Source: an uncultured Chloroflexia bacterium
Lineage (GTDB): Bacteria > Chloroflexota > Dehalococcoidia > GIF9 > UBA5629
Length of the DNA: 64,000 nt
Direction of reading: 5' to 3'
NCBI GenBank assembly: GCA_963827985.1
Contig: CAWHDI010000043.1
Location: 2,401 to 66,400, forward strand
A program made the position numbers and the translations under genes. Below the pieces are notes generated by a model, which made no database searches, had not been told where the DNA came from, and worked only from the letters and a program-made list of their open reading frames with translations. Of this stretch, positions 6,465 to 39,262 are shown in pieces (the stretch's first letter is position 1; each line of letters starts with the position of its first letter).

Positions 6465-6997
6465 ACCGTCAGCCGGCTGTGCTAAGCGGGAAAAAGGTCA
6501 ACCTTCGTCCCCGGCATCTCGAAGACTGTGCTAACGAGTACAGGTGGAGAACAGACGAAGAGCTGTGCCGGCTTGACGCCACCATTCCCGTGGGCCTGTC
6601 ATACGCCGAATTCCTGGACCGTTACTCAATAGAGCTAGAATACCCGGGACTAACGCATACACTGGCCATGGACGCACTGGACGGAACGCACATCGGGGAA
6701 TGCAGCCTCTTCAATATTGATTTTGTTGACAGCAGCACAGAAATAGGGATTTTGATCGGCAACAAATCCTACTGGAACAAAGGTTACGGTTCGGACGCCA
6801 TGGAAACCTTCGTTCAATACATTTTCAGCGCCTCCGATGTAGAAAAAATAGTGCTGAGGACATTGGACTGGAACATCCGCGCCCAGAAGTGCTTCGAGAA
6901 GTGCGGATTCACCCTTTCAGGCACAATGGTCAAAGGAGCCTACCGATTCCTGGTCATGAAGAGCCTGCGGCCCAATAAGCCGGGCGTACCTCAATAA
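6434..6997 (+). CDS. GNAT N-acetyltransferase, RimJ/RimL/SpeG-type
   Basis: VNLRP, EIGILIG..YWNKGYG (acetyl-CoA motif A), and NIRAQKCFEKCGF. Exact start uncertain. Confidence 0.85.
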   Translation: MRRSTIFEFLNRQPAVLSGKKVNLRPRHLEDCANEYRWRTDEELCRLDATIPVGLSYAEFLDRYSIELEYPGLTHTLAMDALDGTHIGECSLFNIDFVDSSTEIGILIGNKSYWNKGYGSDAMETFVQYIFSASDVEKIVLRTLDWNIRAQKCFEKCGFTLSGTMVKGAYRFLVMKSLRPNKPGVPQ

Positions 6998-7924
6998 ACT
7001 ACCAGCGGCGAGTTGTCAGTGACCACTTTTCGTGTTCGCGCTAGTTTCCTGCGTAGCCTCAAAGGCAATGAAAACATTCCGCGGTGCGAAATACCGTCGT
7101 ACGTAGTGAGCGTACCGGAGATCCTTGCCGCCAATCTTGAATTGATTTCCCCGATACCCAAACGTGCCACATCCACCTGATCGGAGACTGTGTGAAATCC
7201 CCAGAGGTCGACGAAGGAAGGCACATACACCTGGTACGGGCTTACATATTTGAAGACGCTTTTCAGGGTACTGTTTATCGCGAAGAAATTGTTAAGGTTG
7301 ATCCATCCTGATTGACCTGACTGCACCACCATAACCCCACCCGGCTTCAGTTTATCCTTGACCAATTGATAGAACTCCCTGGTGTACAGCATCTGGGCCG
7401 GACCCGCTTCCACGGGATCGGCAAGGTCAATGATGGCGACATCGAACCTGTTGCGGGTATCGGCAATATATTTACGCGCATCTTCATATCTAATTTCGGC
7501 GCGTTTGTCATCAAACGCGCCACGATGGAACGTCGGAAGATACTTCCGGCAGAGGTCAACAACCTCTTCATCGATATCAACCATAACAGCTTTCTTCACA
7601 GTATTATGCAGTAACACGTCGCGTAAAGTGGCCCCCTCACCGCCGCCTGCAATAAATACGCTTTCAGGGTGCGGGTGAGCGATCATCGCGGGATGCACAA
7701 GTGATTCATGGTAAATAAACTCATCCTTTTCGCCGGACTGTATCTTACCGTCCAGAACCAGGCACATTCCGAACGTGGCCGTCTTTATTATCTGCCGCGT
7801 GTTGATATTTAGTGGTTACATCGCGAAGTGTACGTTTGATTCCGTGGATCTGCACCAGGTCGGCAGACAGCTCATCGATGAGCCATTTGCTCTTGCTATA
7901 ACAACCTTTTTCTTCGATCTTCAA
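6991..7924 (-). CDS. speE: Polyamine aminopropyltransferase (spermidine synthase); one apparent +1 indel near 7792
   Basis: LVLDGKIQS, IYHESLVHP, IAGGGEGATLR, MVDID and IIDLADP motifs. The N-terminus KWLIDELSADLVQIHGIKRTLRDVTTKYQHA lies in another frame upstream of about 7795, with a TTG start overlapping the speD stop. Confidence 0.9.
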
Positions 7925-8289: not shown

Positions 8290-8413
8290 TTAGTTTGCCT
8301 CCTCAAAGATTGTTATATATTAAAAATGTATTAAATATTGATAACATCATCAAACAGAGCGTAATTTTATATTTTATGTTCAGCATTTTCAAGAAAATGT
8401 ACCCTTTTGGCTA

Positions 8414-8442
8414 TTGACAAAGTCTATATGACACTGTAAAAT
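8414..8442 (+). promoter_or_regulatory. Sigma70-type promoter for the Cys-rich secreted protein
   Basis: TTGACA (8414-8419), 17 nt, TAAAAT (8437-8442). AT-rich upstream region and AGGAGG at 8464-8469. Confidence 0.8.
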
Positions 8443-8477
8443 CGGTTCCAAAATCCATTCATAAGGAGGCGTATGCC

Positions 8478-9155
8478 GTGAGGAGAATTATTGGGACCCT
8501 CGTTGCACTCGTAGTGGCAGTATCATTGGTGCTGATACCGGCAGCCACAGTCTCAGCCGACCTGGGTAAATGCACGGGTTGGGACAAAGTTAAATGGGAA
8601 AATAACCAGAACTCCTGGAAGCTATATCTCCAGCACTGGGGAAGGACGCCGACCAGCGCTCTTTCCAGGCTTGCTGGCCTTTGCGGCCCGGATAAACTTT
8701 GTTCCGGCGTATGCAATACCTCCAAATGCCCGAAGCCCACTGGTTGCGATATCAACCAGTGCCTGGGTGGTTGCAGCAACTGCAATACCGAAGCAGGAAC
8801 TCTGGGATCGGCTTGCACCGATTCACAGAAATGCCTGAATCCGGCCACCAAACCGACCTCACTTCCGCTTGATGATTGTCCGCTGAATTGCCCGGCGAAC
8901 ACGACCACAGCCGGCCTCGGCACTTCGAAGTGCTCGGGCTGCTGGGGCAAGAGCCTGTCTTTTGCCGGCAAGAGCTGGGGTGCCGCTGATATCGGCACCA
9001 ACGCACTCATCAACAACAACCAGATGAACCACTTTGGTTCCGGCAAACTGGGCGGCGGTGACTGGGGTATTACAGGTAGCGCACATCCTGAATGTCTCGC
9101 TCAGACCTGGGCACTCCAGAACAACCTTCTGGCCAAATGCAAAATCTGCAAGTAA
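8478..9155 (+). CDS. Secreted cysteine-rich hypothetical protein (225 aa, 18 Cys)
   Basis: Sec-type signal peptide MRRIIGTLVALVVAVSLVLIPAATVSA, strong RBS, own promoter and terminator. No family recognised. Confidence 0.8.
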   Translation: MRRIIGTLVALVVAVSLVLIPAATVSADLGKCTGWDKVKWENNQNSWKLYLQHWGRTPTSALSRLAGLCGPDKLCSGVCNTSKCPKPTGCDINQCLGGCSNCNTEAGTLGSACTDSQKCLNPATKPTSLPLDDCPLNCPANTTTAGLGTSKCSGCWGKSLSFAGKSWGAADIGTNALINNNQMNHFGSGKLGGGDWGITGSAHPECLAQTWALQNNLLAKCKICK

Positions 9156-9171
9156 GCAGTAACTAAGAAGA

Positions 9172-9213
9172 AAATAAATAAGCGTCCCGAGCATTCGGGA
9201 CGCTTATTTATTT
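9172..9213. terminator. Intrinsic terminator, probably bidirectional
   Basis: Perfect 19-bp stem AAATAAATAAGCGTCCCGA / TCGGGACGCTTATTTATTT with a 4-nt loop. Confidence 0.85.
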
Positions 9214-9236: not shown

Positions 9237-9572
9237 ATGGAACCAGCAGAAAAGTTGATCTCCGTTTATAAGGCATGCGGACAGCCCGAGGCAGAAATCG
9301 TAAAGGGCCGTCTTAACGTTGAAAATATACCGGCTATACTGAAGTATGAAAGCCTGGGCAATGTATATGGATTAACGCTGGATGGGCTGGGACAGGTAGA
9401 GATACTGGTCCCCGCAAGATACGCTCAAAAGGCGTCAGAGATACTGGCAAGTGAAACCAATCTTGAATTGGAATGCCCGGATACTACTAGAGCCAGAGCA
9501 GAATTCAGAGCCTTAAAATCAAACCGGCTGTCCAGAATAGAGGCCAGCACCGTCAATTTCTGCATGTGCTGA
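9237..9572 (+). CDS. DUF2007 (putative signal-transducing) protein
   Basis: EAEIVKGRLNVENIPA..., YGLTLDGLGQVEILVP..AQKASEIL. The 3' end overlaps the convergent gene and may be distorted by an indel. Confidence 0.75.
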   Translation: MEPAEKLISVYKACGQPEAEIVKGRLNVENIPAILKYESLGNVYGLTLDGLGQVEILVPARYAQKASEILASETNLELECPDTTRARAEFRALKSNRLSRIEASTVNFCMC

Positions 9573-10535
9573 AATCTTGATTTAGCAAGCGCCAGTTCAA
9601 TCGCCGACACGACCTCAGCGATGTCCTTGTTGACTACAATCACAGGTACCTTCTTGTCCTCGGCTTTGACCATCACGGGCATGGAGGGCTTCTGTTTTGT
9701 AACAATCAGGCACCTGGTGGAGGTATCCAGCGCTGCAAGCTGCATATCGGGCCTCTCAGACCTTGTCACGACTGCCTTATTGCGCTTCCTGTTGTAGTAC
9801 TCCCTGGCCGAATCCGGGGTCATGGCGCCCAGCATAACATTTTCTACAAGGTCACCGGATTTTTCTTTGGAAGAGATTATCTCAGCCCCCAGGGCAGCAG
9901 CGATTTCTGCAACGCTGACTCCAAGAAGGGGCCTCGATTCAGGCAATACGCCCAGAACGGCCACCCCACGCGATTTAAAATAAGTTTCGCATTCCGCCTT
10001 CACTGTGCTCAATTTGCTTTCTGGAACCTGGTTAACAACTATGCCTGCCAGCCGCGCACCCAATTTTGTAATGACCTGGTCAATCTCGGCATCCTTGTAA
10101 ATCGGTCGAATAGCAGATCAAGAGGACTACATGCGTATTCACTTTCTCGGCTATTGTGTAGCAGGCCAGAGTGGAGACCTTATCATTCTTCAGGCTACCC
10201 GGGCTTTCAACAATGAGGATATCTTTGCCGGCTGCAACCCGGTCACAGGCGGACTTAATCTTGTCGGCAAAGTTGTCGGCGTCTTCAGAAAGGCTATGCC
10301 ATAATTTCTCCTGGGAGATGTTGAATGCGCAACTCTGCTGCTTATCTTCGCCTAATTCAAGGGCTTCGTTGATAAAAACAGCGTCCGGACAGCCGTCCGC
10401 CGACGTAACTTCGGTCAGATTGACAGGTTTTATATACCCAACTTTCTTACCGCCATTAATCAACTTCTTCCCAATTCCGGCACAAAGGGCAGTCTTCCCA
10501 CAGGATTCGTATGATACAATTTGCAGAGTAGTCAT
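9425..10535 (-). CDS. Phosphotransacetylase-family (BioD-like AAA plus DRTGG domain) protein; frameshift near 10085
   Basis: N-terminal CGKTALCAG..VGYIKP and ILIVES are in ORF 10080-10535. GIVVNQV and DRTGG-like AVVTRSERPDMQLAAL are in ORF 9425-10063. Confidence 0.8.
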
Positions 10536-11151: not shown

Positions 11152-12658
11152 ATGGCCGGGCAGGAACGCATCGAACAACCGCGCCTGGAAAAACTGTCCA
11201 GAATTATCAGCCGCGGCATAAATCCTTATCCATATCAATTTCCCCGCACTCATACCTCCATTGAAGCCATAGAGCTATTCGAAAAATCCTCGGCCCAGGG
11301 ACCGGAGAGCACTCCAGAGGAGGTCAGCCTTGCAGGAAGAGTTACAGCAGCCCGGTTCATGGGCAAGGCTGCATTCTTCGATATACGTGACGGTTCAGGC
11401 AAAATACAGGCATTTTTCCGCCGCGATTCATTGGGGGACGAGAACTACGAGCTATTACACGACATTGACCTGGGTGATTTTATCGGTGTGAGGGGAGTAC
11501 TGTTCAAGACGCGGTCAGGCGAGATAACAGTCGAAGTCATAGATTACACCATACTCGCAAAGACCCTCATGCCACTGCCCGAAAAGTTCCACGGACTGGT
11601 GGACGTTGAAAAAAGGTACCGCCAGCGCTACCTCGACCTTATTGCCAATGAGGATATCAAAGACCTGTTCGTTAAACGCAGCAAAATAATCAGTACAATA
11701 CGAAGTTTTATGGATGGTCGTGGGTTTGTAGAGGTGGAAACTCCCGTGCTTCAACCCATGTACGGAGGCGCACTGGCAAGGCCTTTCATTACCCACCATC
11801 ATGCTCTGGACCAGGACCTCTATCCCAGGATAGCCCTTGAGCTCTATTTAAAGAGATTAATTATTGGCGGATTCGACAAAGTCTATGAAATCGGCAGAGT
11901 ATTCCGCAATGAGGGGATATCTACAAAGCATAACCCGGAATTCACTATGATGGAGAGCTACGAAGCGTATGCTGACTATCGCGACGTGATGAAAATGACC
12001 GAGGAACTTGTCAGCACCGCCGCCAGAGAAGTGCTGGGTACGACGTGAAATCCCCTACGCAGGAGAGATTATCAAGCTGGACCCACCCTGGAAACGGCTT
12101 CCCTTCAAGCAAGCACTGATGGATAAATGCGGAATCAATTTCACGGATTATCCTGACGCTGACAGCCTTAGAGTAAAAATGGGACAGATGGGCATGCAGG
12201 TTGACCCGCTTAAGGACCGCGGCCGTTTGATTGATGAATTGCTCTCAACTTACGTGGAACCCGACCTCAAACAGCCAACCTTTCTAATCGACTACCCTAT
12301 CGAGATGTCGCCGCTGGCCAAGAAACACAGGGATGATCCGACACTTGTAGAGCGCTTCGAGGCTTTTATCGGCACCATGGAGGTCGCAAACTCCTTCTCG
12401 GAGCTGAATGACCCCCGCGAGCAGCGCGAAAGGTTCATACAGCAAAGGCAAATGCACGCCGCTGAAGTAGAGCGTGCCATAGCCGCCGGAGAGCTCCCGG
12501 AGACTGAGATGATTGATGACGATTTCATCACGGCCATGGAACACGGCATGCCCCCCACGGGAGGTCTGGGGATCGGCATCGACCGTCTAATAATGTTGTT
12601 GACCGATAAGCAGTCCATCCGTGAAGTGATATTGTTCCCACAGCTCAAGACCCGGTAG
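11152..12658 (+). CDS. lysS: Lysine--tRNA ligase (class II); one apparent +1 indel near 12046
   Basis: OB-fold anticodon domain, [23 protein letters not shown] in the first frame. [29 protein letters not shown] in the second frame. Confidence 0.97.
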
Positions 12659-14101: not shown

Positions 14102-15706
14102 ATGACTGAAGGTCAATCACAGACGGGACCGAGATTCTGCCGACAATGCGGTGGGGTCGTCCCCGAGGGAACGGCCCTATGCCCAAGGTGCGGGCAGAAG
14201 TGGTACATGGACCGCACCGAACAACAGGGCGTGGACCTTTGGCAGAAGATAATTGAAAAGAGGGCCGCATCGGGTGTGGGAGGAGGTCCATCTGCAGAAG
14301 ACCAGGGTAAATACCGGTGTCCAAATTGCATGGCAATCTTGAAAGGTCCCGCCGCCGTCTGCCCTCACTGCGGCCAGAGCACAATCAAAGCGAAAATTGT
14401 ACCGACTGACCGTGATACGGAGAATGCAGAAGGACAAGCCGGGGAAGATAAGCTGAACCTCCCGGATGCCGCCAAAGGACTTGCATCAATTAAGGGCGCT
14501 ACCAAGCGGGCCGCCAAATTCAAAGGACGGAAGCGCGTCAGGATCCTGGACGCCATTATCATTGCGGTCATTGTCATCGTTGTAGCGGTAATGGGATTTA
14601 TATTGGCCCGTCAGTATGGGCTGCTGCCGTCTTCCCTGTCATTTTTATCGTCCGCCAAACCGTCAACTCAGCAGCAGGCGACAACTGCCGCCACACAGAC
14701 CACCCCAACAATTTCCGGAATAATGGCTTCGGACCTGACTTCAGACAGCGCAGCTATATCATGGTCGACTGACTCGCCTTCCTGGGGCAAGGTACTTTAC
14801 GGGAAATCCGACTCTTACGGCGAATCAGCTCTTGCCACACTACAAATGAGCTCACAAAAAGTCGTTTTAAAGGGCCTTGAGCCAACGACAACTTACCACT
14901 TCGCCATAGCTGTGACGGATGGAAAAGGCCAGGAGATATCCCGCAGCGAAGACAAGACTTTTAACACTCCCGCGGCTACTGACATAAAGCCGCCGATGTT
15001 ATCACAGTTAAAGGTTATTCCAACGGATGTCGGCGCGATTATACAATGGGTCACCGATGAACCGTCTACAAGCCAGATAATATACGGCTCCGATCAAACG
15101 GTCACAAATTCGACTCAGGTTGACTCACGGCTTGTAAAAGAGCATTCAGTGCATTTGAACGGGCTGGAAGCAAACAATCAGTATTATTATCGCTTAAAAT
15201 CTGCAGATGCAGCAGGCAATGAAACCGTGATGGATCCCGAAGGGGTTTTTACAACGCTAATAACTGTACCAATCGGTTCCAGAGTGGGCGAACGCGCAGC
15301 CGACTTCACTCTGCCAATTTTCCAGTCGCAGGACAGTGCGGTCCTGCGAAGCTACAAAGGTCAGAAGATTCTTCTGACTTTCTGGGCTGTCTATTGCCCC
15401 GACTGCGACCGCGAGCTGGCATTGCTACAGGCTCTCCAAAACAAGAACTTACCCAATGTGAAGATAATAGCCGTAATAGTTGAAAGTAAGCCTGAGGACA
15501 TAGAAAAGACCATCGCCAGGTATAAGGCGGCCAACGGCGACCTTACCTTCCCTGTGGCGGTAGATGCCTATAAGACAACAGCTCACCTGTATAATGTCGA
15601 AAAAGTGCCGTGCACCTTCTTCATAGACAGCGACATGATAATCCGTAATATCGAATTCGGCGGCTTTAACGCGGACCAGGTCGAGCAGATACTCAATGAT
15701 TTATAA
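14102..15706 (+). CDS. Zinc-ribbon x2 / TM / FN3 x2 / TlpA-like redoxin (CPDC) protein
   Basis: CRQC..CPRC and CPNC..CPHC ribbons. Basic stretch then TM (ILDAIIIAVIVIVVAVMGFILA). Two W-x-TD...Y-x-Y FN3-like repeats. AADFTLP..FWAVYCPDC..VPCTFFID thioredoxin fold. Confidence 0.85.
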   Translation: MTEGQSQTGPRFCRQCGGVVPEGTALCPRCGQKWYMDRTEQQGVDLWQKIIEKRAASGVGGGPSAEDQGKYRCPNCMAILKGPAAVCPHCGQSTIKAKIVPTDRDTENAEGQAGEDKLNLPDAAKGLASIKGATKRAAKFKGRKRVRILDAIIIAVIVIVVAVMGFILARQYGLLPSSLSFLSSAKPSTQQQATTAATQTTPTISGIMASDLTSDSAAISWSTDSPSWGKVLYGKSDSYGESALATLQMSSQKVVLKGLEPTTTYHFAIAVTDGKGQEISRSEDKTFNTPAATDIKPPMLSQLKVIPTDVGAIIQWVTDEPSTSQIIYGSDQTVTNSTQVDSRLVKEHSVHLNGLEANNQYYYRLKSADAAGNETVMDPEGVFTTLITVPIGSRVGERAADFTLPIFQSQDSAVLRSYKGQKILLTFWAVYCPDCDRELALLQALQNKNLPNVKIIAVIVESKPEDIEKTIARYKAANGDLTFPVAVDAYKTTAHLYNVEKVPCTFFIDSDMIIRNIEFGGFNADQVEQILNDL

Positions 15707-21737: not shown

Positions 21738-21826
21738 GGAGGGGTGACCGAGCGGCCGATGGTGACGGTCTTGAAAACCGTTTTAGCTTCGTGCTAACGC
21801 GGGTTCGAATCCCGCCCCCTCCGCCA
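21738..21826 (+). tRNA. tRNA-Ser (anticodon UGA), long variable arm, encoded CCA
   Basis: Acceptor stem GGAGGGG/CCCCTCC, anticodon arm ACGGT-CTTGAAA-ACCGT, T-loop GGTTCGAATCC, 3' GCCA. Confidence 0.97.
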
Positions 21827-38285: not shown

Positions 38286-38624
38286 TTATTTCGCTACTTT
38301 ATCAAGTTCCCTGAGGTGGGTATCAATTCCCTTACCAAAGAGCTTCAGAACGATCGGCTCACCGTCGCCATACTTTTTGTACACGCGGCAGGTCTCGCAA
38401 ATGCTGGTATCGCGTCCAGTGGAACCTTTGTCATCCAGCTTGCAATAAGTCCCTTCGATCTCCCAGCAGGGCAAGAACTGATACTTGGAAACCGGGCATT
38501 CGTTGGTAATCATTTCAGGGCAGTTGCAGAGTTTGTAACATGATGTCTTGTCGGCCCAGAAATTTACGCCTTGCTCTTCTTTAACCTCAGTGGCTTTCTT
38601 CGCCTTAACTTTATTTTCAGCCAT
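38286..38624 (-). CDS. Two-CW-type Cys-rich small protein (paralog A)
   Basis: C..LCNC..ECP..KYQFLPCWEIEGTYC..ICETCRVY, with AGGAGG RBS. Confidence 0.75.
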   Translation of the reverse strand: MAENKVKAKKATEVKEEQGVNFWADKTSCYKLCNCPEMITNECPVSKYQFLPCWEIEGTYCKLDDKGSTGRDTSICETCRVYKKYGDGEPIVLKLFGKGIDTHLRELDKVAK

Positions 38625-38830: not shown

Positions 38831-39172
38831 TTACCTTACGGCGGTCTGCTCCAGCGCCTTCAAAGAGGTATTGATCCCGCGTCCCATTAACTTCAACTGT
38901 ATGGGTTTGCCATCACCGTATGTCTTATATACACGGCATATCTGACAAATGCTGGTATCTTTCCCATCAGTCCCATAATCATCCAGCTTGCAGTAAGTAC
39001 CTTCAATCTCCCAGCAGGGAAGAAACTGATACTTAACAGCCGGGCATTCTGCTTTAACCATATTAGTGCAATGCGACACTTCCCAGCACGGCTTCTTATC
39101 TGTCCAGAAGTTAAACCCGCGTTCCTCTTTGATTTCTGCTGCGGTCTCTATCTTTTCAATTACTTTTTCCAT
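38831..39172 (-). CDS. Two-CW-type Cys-rich small protein (paralog B)
   Basis: KPCWEVSHC..ECPAVKYQFLPCWEIEGTYC..ICQICRVY. ATG at 39172 after AGGAGG. Confidence 0.75.
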   Translation of the reverse strand: MEKVIEKIETAAEIKEERGFNFWTDKKPCWEVSHCTNMVKAECPAVKYQFLPCWEIEGTYCKLDDYGTDGKDTSICQICRVYKTYGDGKPIQLKLMGRGINTSLKALEQTAVR

Positions 39173-39262
39173 TTTCTTGCCTCCTGTTTCCTCTTTTCCA
39201 GGTTGCTCATACTTTAACATCGCATGCAACCCCGAGCATCCGCCTTAATGCCTAATATGCAA

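Follow-up and report, generated by a model that had tools for sequence, protein, structure and literature searches.

A cysteine-rich gene of an uncultured Dehalococcoidales family probably encodes a real, exported and disulfide-bonded orphan core protein that would be folded by a non-canonical pathway. The gene lies at positions 8478 to 9155 of the forward strand in a stretch of 64,000 nucleotides, referred to here as the window (GenBank assembly GCA_963827985.1, contig CAWHDI010000043.1, positions 2,401 to 66,400). The general view is that an obligate anaerobe with neither DsbB nor VKOR avoids disulfides in its exported proteins. The family in question is widespread in peat, sediment and groundwater and keeps a core gene whose cysteines evolve like disulfide partners, and in the same genomes the canonical machinery is lacking and the FN3-TlpA and MauE-TlpA proteins are unusually expanded. 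If this reading is true, the protein would lend itself as a reporter substrate in the study of disulfide formation without quinone-linked oxidases and as a taxonomic marker for the family, and it would probably have a new fold; if it is merely another stable secreted protein, it is a well-described orphan of modest interest. The anatomy of the gene, its conservation and phyletic pattern, the pairing signal of the cysteines and the absence of canonical Dsb genes are shown below; export, the disulfides in vivo, the folding catalysts, the abundance and the role are what we infer.

Cysteines gained and lost in pairs

The 225-residue protein carries 18 cysteines, at residues 32, 69, 75, 79, 84, 90, 95, 99, 102, 113, 119, 134, 138, 152, 155, 206, 221 and 224, and vicinal CC or CCCC motifs also occur in some homologues. 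The Cys count is even in 108 of 110 distinct full-length homologues, over a range of 10 to 36; a bias of this kind is a recognised sign that exported proteins form disulfides (PMC2823432). The count stays even despite about 128 gains and losses that were reconstructed on the family tree, summed over 20 tracked positions, and several positions change state as partners. Among the 110 homologues, 67 have both of the cysteines at positions 201 and 212, 43 have neither, and none has a single one; for positions 69 and 75 the corresponding counts are 93, 17 and 0, and positions 102 and 119 give 89, 16 and 5. On the tree, 201 and 212 each switch state 20 times, always together, and 12 of 12 phylogenetically independent contrasts on supported branches agree (p = 0.0005). 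The pair 69-75 agrees in 4 of 4 independent contrasts, with 7 changes at each position, and 32-206 in 3 of 3. The window's own protein has S201 (9078-9080) and A212 (9111-9113), that is, the optional pair is missing from it, and across the family 201-212 reads as an unusually labile optional disulfide. Even counts across homologues together with the gain and loss of partner pairs are what marks a generic disulfide-bonded exported protein, and both are found here.

A partial disulfide map was drawn from the joint-loss patterns in close relatives. It would pair C32 with C206, C69 with C75, C79 with C155, C84 with C90, C95 with C152, C102 with C119 and C221 with C224, and two further pairs would fall among C99, C113, C134 and C138. 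Apart from those of the terminal CKIC, the cysteines of the CxxC motifs are thereby bonded to residues farther away. The protein may be pictured as a Sec-exported chain of about 20.7 kDa, in which two Trp-rich blocks surround a fast-evolving and dispensable Cys-rich excursion. C84-C90 and C102-C119 would lie inside this insert, C79-C155 and C95-C152 would staple its base, and the disulfides as a whole would fasten the N-block to the C-block and turn the insert into a knot. Because the Cys count is even and the cysteines are gained and lost pairwise, we favour disulfides over metal sites, and most likely all 18 cysteines take part in structural disulfides, nine in number.

An earlier note on this DNA had left the choice between a disulfide-rich and a metal-binding protein, and the two halves of that proposal fared differently. 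In the metal-binding alternative, Cys and conserved His residues would serve as ligands for an extracellular metal, be it Zn, Fe, Cu or some other, and the protein would be a chelator, a metallochaperone or a metallothionein-like buffer with no disulfides. The three CxxC motifs and the His residues H53, H185 and H203, which are invariant in the main family, are compatible with this, as are the lack of DsbA, DsbB and VKOR and the other exported proteins, which show no even-Cys bias; Cys4 sites would likewise keep the Cys count even. However, the cysteines come and go as specific twos and not as fours, and when C102 is lost with C119, or C155 with C79, the CxxC partners C99 and C152 stay in place. 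Some 20 toggles of one pair fit an optional staple rather than a metal site. Disulfides that can be dispensed with speak against a centre for redox chemistry or metal binding, and distant members lose the conserved His. The protein also differs from metallothioneins in having 8 Trp, only 9% Cys and an evolutionary pairing of its cysteines. We thus consider metal binding unlikely; Cys parity and pairwise co-loss favour the disulfide half of the proposal over the chelator half.

A proposed folding route without DsbB and VKOR

If the protein is disulfide-bonded, something in these genomes has to form the bonds, and the canonical enzymes are lacking. In high-quality genomes of the family, VKOR and DsbB were each found in 0 of 21 and DsbA and Thioredoxin_4 each in 1 of 16, the positive controls having responded in each search; CcdA/DsbD_TM was present in 21 of 21. 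Because the lineage is without DsbA, DsbB and VKOR, we suppose that oxidative folding would depend on expanded membrane-anchored FN3-TlpA proteins, on MauE-FN3-TlpA fusions and on CcdA, in a route that would resemble SdbA-type or MauE/MauD-type pathways.

The nearest of these proteins is encoded about 5 kb downstream of the Cys-rich gene (14102 to 15706, forward strand), at a position that is conserved in relatives. According to Pfam, it consists of a Zn-ribbon, a transmembrane segment, two FN3 domains and a TlpA-like AhpC/TSA domain with the active site CPDC, and it may be regarded, by inference only, as a candidate folding catalyst. Most genomes of the family have 5-12 copies of the FN3-FN3-AhpC/TSA architecture (3-12 overall), whereas sister families have 0-2 weak FN3-TlpA matches that cover the thioredoxin domain only. 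Several of the FN3-TlpA copies adjoin CcdA. MauE occurs in 36 of the 38 family genomes with a completeness of 90% or more and, among the other families of the order, in 10 of 42 genomes, and many family genomes encode MauE-FN3-TlpA fusions in a single open reading frame (ORF) of about 530-610 aa. One fusion was verified at locus L082 (235-1971, reverse strand); its 579 aa comprise a MauE/DoxX-type domain (residues 16-157), an FN3 domain and an AhpC/TSA domain (431-546) with the motif WCSAC, and it is a candidate for a one-polypeptide MauE/MauD-like module.

The earlier note had suggested the Cys-rich protein as a client of the TlpA-like oxidoreductases downstream and had named co-occurrence with the zinc-ribbon/FN3/TlpA genes as a check. 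The co-occurrence holds, as the gene some 5 kb downstream is conserved, the architecture is expanded in this family only, and CcdA and the MauE fusions accompany the lack of DsbA, DsbB and VKOR; it is a co-occurrence within a single clade and lends the proposed relation of enzyme and client circumstantial support.

Two known systems help to judge the proposed route. In Streptococcus gordonii, which is without DsbB or VKOR, the membrane-associated AhpC/TSA-family protein SdbA forms disulfides in a few secreted clients (PMC12453122, PMC5112981). The Dehalococcoidales family resembles it in lacking DsbA, DsbB and VKOR and in having many exported AhpC/TSA-type domains. Given this precedent, a TlpA/MauE-type folding route is plausible here as well, on the basis of co-occurrence within one clade. 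The likeness concerns the presumed catalyst and not the Cys-rich protein, however, and the proteins described here add Zn-ribbon, FN3 or MauE domains, and their client would have nine disulfides. The second system is MauA, the light chain of methylamine dehydrogenase, which has six disulfides and depends on MauE and MauD. Like MauA, the Cys-rich protein would be small, exported, disulfide-rich and Trp-containing, and its host has MauE and a thioredoxin-fold, MauD-like partner. Unlike MauA, it shows no light-chain sequence similarity in a Pfam scan to E = 10, its gene is monocistronic, there is no mau operon, large subunit or cofactor-maturation gene nearby, and MauE also occurs in sister families without the Cys-rich gene.

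The same machinery could be read in another way, namely that the protein is a redox-active extracellular thiol/disulfide carrier that works with CcdA, TlpA and MauE, for example as an electron sink or shuttle to organic disulfides, polysulfide or humics. The family-restricted gene coincides with a family-restricted FN3-TlpA expansion, CcdA is universal in the family, and MauE/DoxX-type fusions and three CxxC motifs are at hand. The co-loss pattern is at odds with such a carrier, since it couples the CxxC cysteines to distant partners, except for C221-C224, and evolutionarily optional disulfides fit staples rather than redox centres; the coincidence with the TlpA expansion is seen in one clade (n = 1). 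A redox carrier therefore seems very improbable to us.

In its own organism the protein stands out. When the genome that the window comes from, which is 56% complete, was roughly screened for signal peptides, 78 candidates for the exported proteome emerged, among which the Cys-rich protein is the most Cys-rich, with 18 cysteines against 9 in the next. The earlier note had called such a protein unusual for an anaerobe, and this outlier position lends support to that remark.

A single-copy core gene of one family

A word-indexed search returned 56 homologous clusters, all of them unnamed or annotated as 'hypothetical protein' and all from metagenome-assembled genomes (MAGs) of Dehalococcoidia or Chloroflexi, and when 1.84 billion representatives were scanned exhaustively with HMMER, only 21 clusters came back. 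Among the GTDB species genomes, 66 loci encode a homologue, again all in Dehalococcoidia or Dehalococcoidales MAGs. Peat, fen or lake sediment is the source wherever an isolate name gives one. A family profile detected the gene in 74 of the 77 genomes that belong to the GTDB family of the window, representing 24 of 25 genera and almost always in single copy, and in none of the 124 from the order's other families. In a class-wide sample of 201 genomes, it occurred only in the 6 from its own family and in 0 of the 195 others.

Its surroundings are equally constant. The order of neighbours is PmbA/TldD, PAC2, HEAT, GNAT and speE/speD (reverse strand), then the Cys-rich gene, and then DUF2007, DRTGG (reverse strand), GreA, LysS, SerS and the ZnR-FN3-TlpA gene; this synteny is identical around homologues of 83% and 49% identity. 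The Cys-rich gene is an ancestral, near-universal single-copy core gene of one uncultured Dehalococcoidales family, at a fixed position. A mobile or viral origin was considered and rejected, as the gene is on no viral contig searched and its synteny is fixed. The idea that it had been inserted between speD and DUF2007, put forward in the earlier note, has to be given up, because the gene has this ancestral position at every locus examined.

Purifying selection acts on the gene. Pairwise ratios of nonsynonymous to synonymous substitution rates (dN/dS) between close orthologues were 0.14 overall, 0.05 in the N-block, 0.16 in the variable middle and 0.19 in the C-block. These data bear on the proposal, also made in the earlier note, that the protein is bacteriocin- or toxin-like, which would make it a basic protein, rich in Cys and Trp, that is secreted to harm competitors. 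The mature protein is indeed small, basic (isoelectric point 8.5) and rich in Cys and Trp, and its gene stands alone behind a strong promoter. A weapon of this kind would hardly be a single-copy core gene that is present in nearly all genomes of a family at a fixed housekeeping locus instead of being patchy. No adjacent gene encodes immunity, ABC-type export or processing, the neighbours being speDE, DUF2007, DRTGG and GreA; selection is purifying and not diversifying; viral contigs are without the gene, and the PADLOC and PHROGs searches came back empty. We regard an antimicrobial function as highly unlikely.

Architecture, fold and possible role

In alignments A1 and A2, the protein divides into three parts, two conserved Trp-rich blocks and a variable Cys-rich middle between them. 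The N-block (residues 28-75; 8559 to 8702, forward strand) reads WDKVKW..NSW.LYLQHWGRTP..AMSRLAGLCGP and is under tighter constraint than the rest of the protein. The insert (residues 76-151; 8703 to 8930, forward strand) has 11 of the cysteines, and natural short forms (P0032, P0043), with a length of 153-167 aa, lack most of it. The C-block (residues 152-225; 8931 to 9152, forward strand) has the motif C..CWGKSL.FA.KSW...NH.G..GGDWGITG.PH.EC..TW.LQ.N, followed by the terminal CKIC. In some homologues (P0011, P0021, P0030; L024), about 40 Cys-free residues, with much Ser, Thr, Ala and Pro, are inserted just before GGDWG, and this site marks a tolerant surface loop. K39, W40, N43, Y50, W54, G55, T57, P58, H185, D195, W196 and H203 are invariant in an alignment of 103 sequences, and D36, N43, H53, N184, H185, D195, H203 and many Trp are invariant over the 28 sequences of A1. 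The most distant members, which came from the exhaustive search (P0064, P0071, P0062), retain the Trp scaffold but are without H53, N184-H185 and D195.

Residues of this kind raise the question of an extracellular enzyme of a new fold, acting for example on polysaccharide or the envelope, with catalytic roles for the conserved His, Asp and Asn and substrate binding by the Trp. Besides the invariant residues of A1, the low dN/dS of the N-block and a Gly/Asn/Ser/Thr/Trp-rich composition reminiscent of carbohydrate-binding modules speak for it. Yet no enzyme family or solved structure in the searched databases matched, the conserved neighbourhood holds no gene for a partner or for substrate uptake, and the catalytic reading is weakened by the distant members that keep the Trp scaffold without the conserved His and Asp. 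In our view, an enzymatic function is quite unlikely.

That the protein has no recognisable family, as the earlier note had stated, is confirmed by our searches. Single-sequence searches of Pfam and NCBIfam to E = 10 and of PHROGs and PADLOC to E = 1, with Pfam and NCBIfam also searched with all 28 alignment members, gave no family match and only noise. In Pfam, PF00757 (Furin-like) scored 7 bits (E = 6.7) against a gathering threshold of 26.8 bits, with a best E of 0.15 over the 28 members. In NCBIfam, NF041742 (WGxxGxxG) stayed below its cut-off, with matches in 3 of the 28 members (best E = 0.1) and none for the window's protein. A match to Asr (E = 0.17) was likewise noise, as was DDC1 (E of about 0.7), the only return of a sequence profile search of the PDB. 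Nothing relevant to the protein was found in the literature on Dehalococcoidia. A likeness of CSGCWG...NH...H to the Cys-His arrangement of NlpC/P60 was rejected, as there is no Pfam match and the residues are missing in distant members. On these sequence comparisons, the family is an orphan that is still 'hypothetical' in public databases.

Some resemblances to known proteins are of composition or function and not of descent. Furin-like and EGF-like repeats, knottins and granulins also have closely set cysteines, C-x3-5-C and CxxC spacing and cross-linked neighbouring loops, and such eukaryotic Cys-rich modules are likewise variable in sequence and tolerant of indels; this resemblance is compositional and not one of homology, and the Trp-rich blocks have no counterpart there. 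Purely as a functional analogy, fungal hydrophobins and bacterial surface-coat proteins are also small, secreted, lineage-restricted, presumably abundant and multi-disulfide proteins. In contrast to hydrophobins, the Cys-rich protein gives no sequence match, lacks the 8-Cys pattern and is hydrophilic in its mature form.

Several observations weigh against the reading that we prefer. Several of the proposed pairs rest on just 1-3 independent events, and two sequences (P0014 and L052) do not fit the disulfide map, which is why the map is offered as a hypothesis. The invariant H53, H185, H203 and D195 of the main family could mean catalysis or metal binding. Among the other members of the roughly defined exported proteome, even Cys counts are not favoured (27 even, 44 odd), so that the lineage does not look like a general disulfide former, and a protein with nine disulfides would be odd in it. 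The TlpA expansion and the Cys-rich gene co-occur in one clade, which amounts to a single phylogenetic event, and TlpA together with CcdA is classically a reducing pathway. Finally, AlphaFold2 gave low-confidence models, with a predicted local distance difference test score (pLDDT) of 38.3 for the full-length protein with 28 sequences and of 45.9 for a natural short form with 103 sequences, and Foldseek found 0 matches in the PDB, a result of little weight given the poor model; the fold, and hence the role, is left unassigned by them. As to the role, we tentatively suggest, as a possibility below even chances, an abundant and protease-resistant structural or binding protein outside the cell or on its surface, rather than an enzyme or a toxin. 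A bolder version, in which the protein has a new fold, is the main client of a DsbB- and VKOR-free MauE-FN3-TlpA/CcdA pathway, is hyper-disulfide-bonded and very abundant, and defines the envelope biology of the family, seems rather doubtful.

Gene structure, expression signals and predicted export

The elements that had been read from the letters alone are all present, namely the promoter, the ribosome-binding site (RBS), the 18 cysteines with the quoted motifs CSGVC, CLGGCSNC, CPLNC, CSGC and CKIC, the lack of a CxxCH motif and the 19-bp terminator. The coding sequence has a GTG start and encodes 225 aa before a TAA stop, and both the dN/dS values and the 56 homologous clusters back it. The mature protein (residues 28-225) has 198 aa, a mass of 20.7 kDa, 18 Cys and 8 Trp; it is rich in Gly, Asn, Ser, Thr and Trp and hydrophilic, with a grand average of hydropathy of -0.38. 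None of its three CxxC motifs (99-102, 152-155 and 221-224) has His as the next residue; the protein is accordingly without the haem motif of c-type cytochromes.

The locus is a monocistronic gene with its own promoter and terminator, in agreement with the earlier description of a stand-alone, self-contained unit. A sigma-70-type promoter (8414 to 8442, forward strand) consists of TTGACA (8414-8419), a 17-nt spacer and TAAAAT (8437-8442), which match 11 of 12 consensus positions, and the promoter string CTATTGACAA...TGTAAAAT is kept upstream of homologues in every clade. At four loci (L035, L036, L042 and L043) there are two tandem TTGACA...TGTA(A/G)AAT copies. The RBS, AAGGAGG (8463 to 8469, forward strand), ends 8 nt ahead of the GTG; the same sequence is found at nearly all homologous loci, and ATGGAGG or ACGGAGG in one distant clade. 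An intrinsic terminator hairpin (9172 to 9213, forward strand) has a 19-bp stem, a 4-nt loop, arms with an A-tract and a T-tract and an RNAfold energy of -32 kcal/mol, and it is retained in relatives with compensatory changes in the G+C core of the stem. Promoter, RBS and terminator are conserved over about 60 loci, which indicates that they are more than chance features. From these conserved strong signals, the high expression named in the earlier note may be predicted. Three contigs of about 1 kb were considered as possible transcripts and rejected, as they carry fragments of neighbouring genes and look like DNA contigs.

The leader region has some further features. A mini-ORF of three codons, ATG-CCG-TGA (8473-8481), overlaps the GTG start out of frame; it is probably unused because its ATG is only 3 nt from the RBS, and the string GCGTATGCCGTG at this place is kept in all close relatives. 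In one distant clade (L037, L039, L040, L044-L048 and L050), the leader contains a conserved, hairpin-forming block, AAAGGGTGGTCGA(A/C)CCTTT, between promoter and RBS. Rfam returned no RNA element at the locus or in its leader. The intergenic region is shared with a divergent promoter-like site for speD, TTGAAA-17-TAAAAT (8364 to 8392, reverse strand), which lies outside the unit, and the speD-side block GTAATTTTATATTTTATG...ATTTCAAGAAA is conserved in relatives.

Residues 1-27 (8478 to 8558, forward strand) form a predicted Sec-type signal peptide, assigned by eye from its n-, h- and c-regions, with an MRR n-region, a hydrophobic core of 20 residues and cleavage between VSA and D, and the protein is thus likely to be exported. 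The Sec assignment of the earlier note is strengthened by the homologues, in which the n/h/c pattern is conserved and the twin Arg is not: it is present in 52 of the 93 homologues counted, and the others have RK, RI, KI, KK, RV or RS. Because RR is not conserved, we take the signal to be Sec rather than Tat, and a Tat substrate was rejected for this reason and because the F-L-K context of the S/T-R-R-x-F-L-K motif is absent. A lipoprotein was also rejected: in ATVSA followed by DLGKC, the K at -1 does not suit the lipobox [LVI][ASTVI][GAS]C, and the first Cys is G in several homologues.

Other observations in the window

Three neighbours of the Cys-rich gene each show one frameshift relative to intact orthologues, according to tblastn, in which the frame switches inside each gene: speE (6991-7924) near 7795, the DRTGG gene (9425-10535) near 10095 and lysS (11152-12658) near 12046. 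With three indels within about 5 kb, errors of assembly or sequencing in the MAG are suggested, and pseudogenes are the less likely explanation; unlike these three, the Cys-rich gene itself is intact. Elsewhere in the window, two paralogous Cys-rich 'CW' proteins of 112 and 132 aa (38286-38624 and 38831-39229, reverse strand) share FLPCWEIEGTYCKLDD. They were considered as relatives of the Cys-rich protein and rejected, as blastp gave E = 0.19 over 20 residues and they lack signal peptides. A tRNA gene (21738-21823, forward strand) is the sole Rfam match at the gathering threshold in the whole window.

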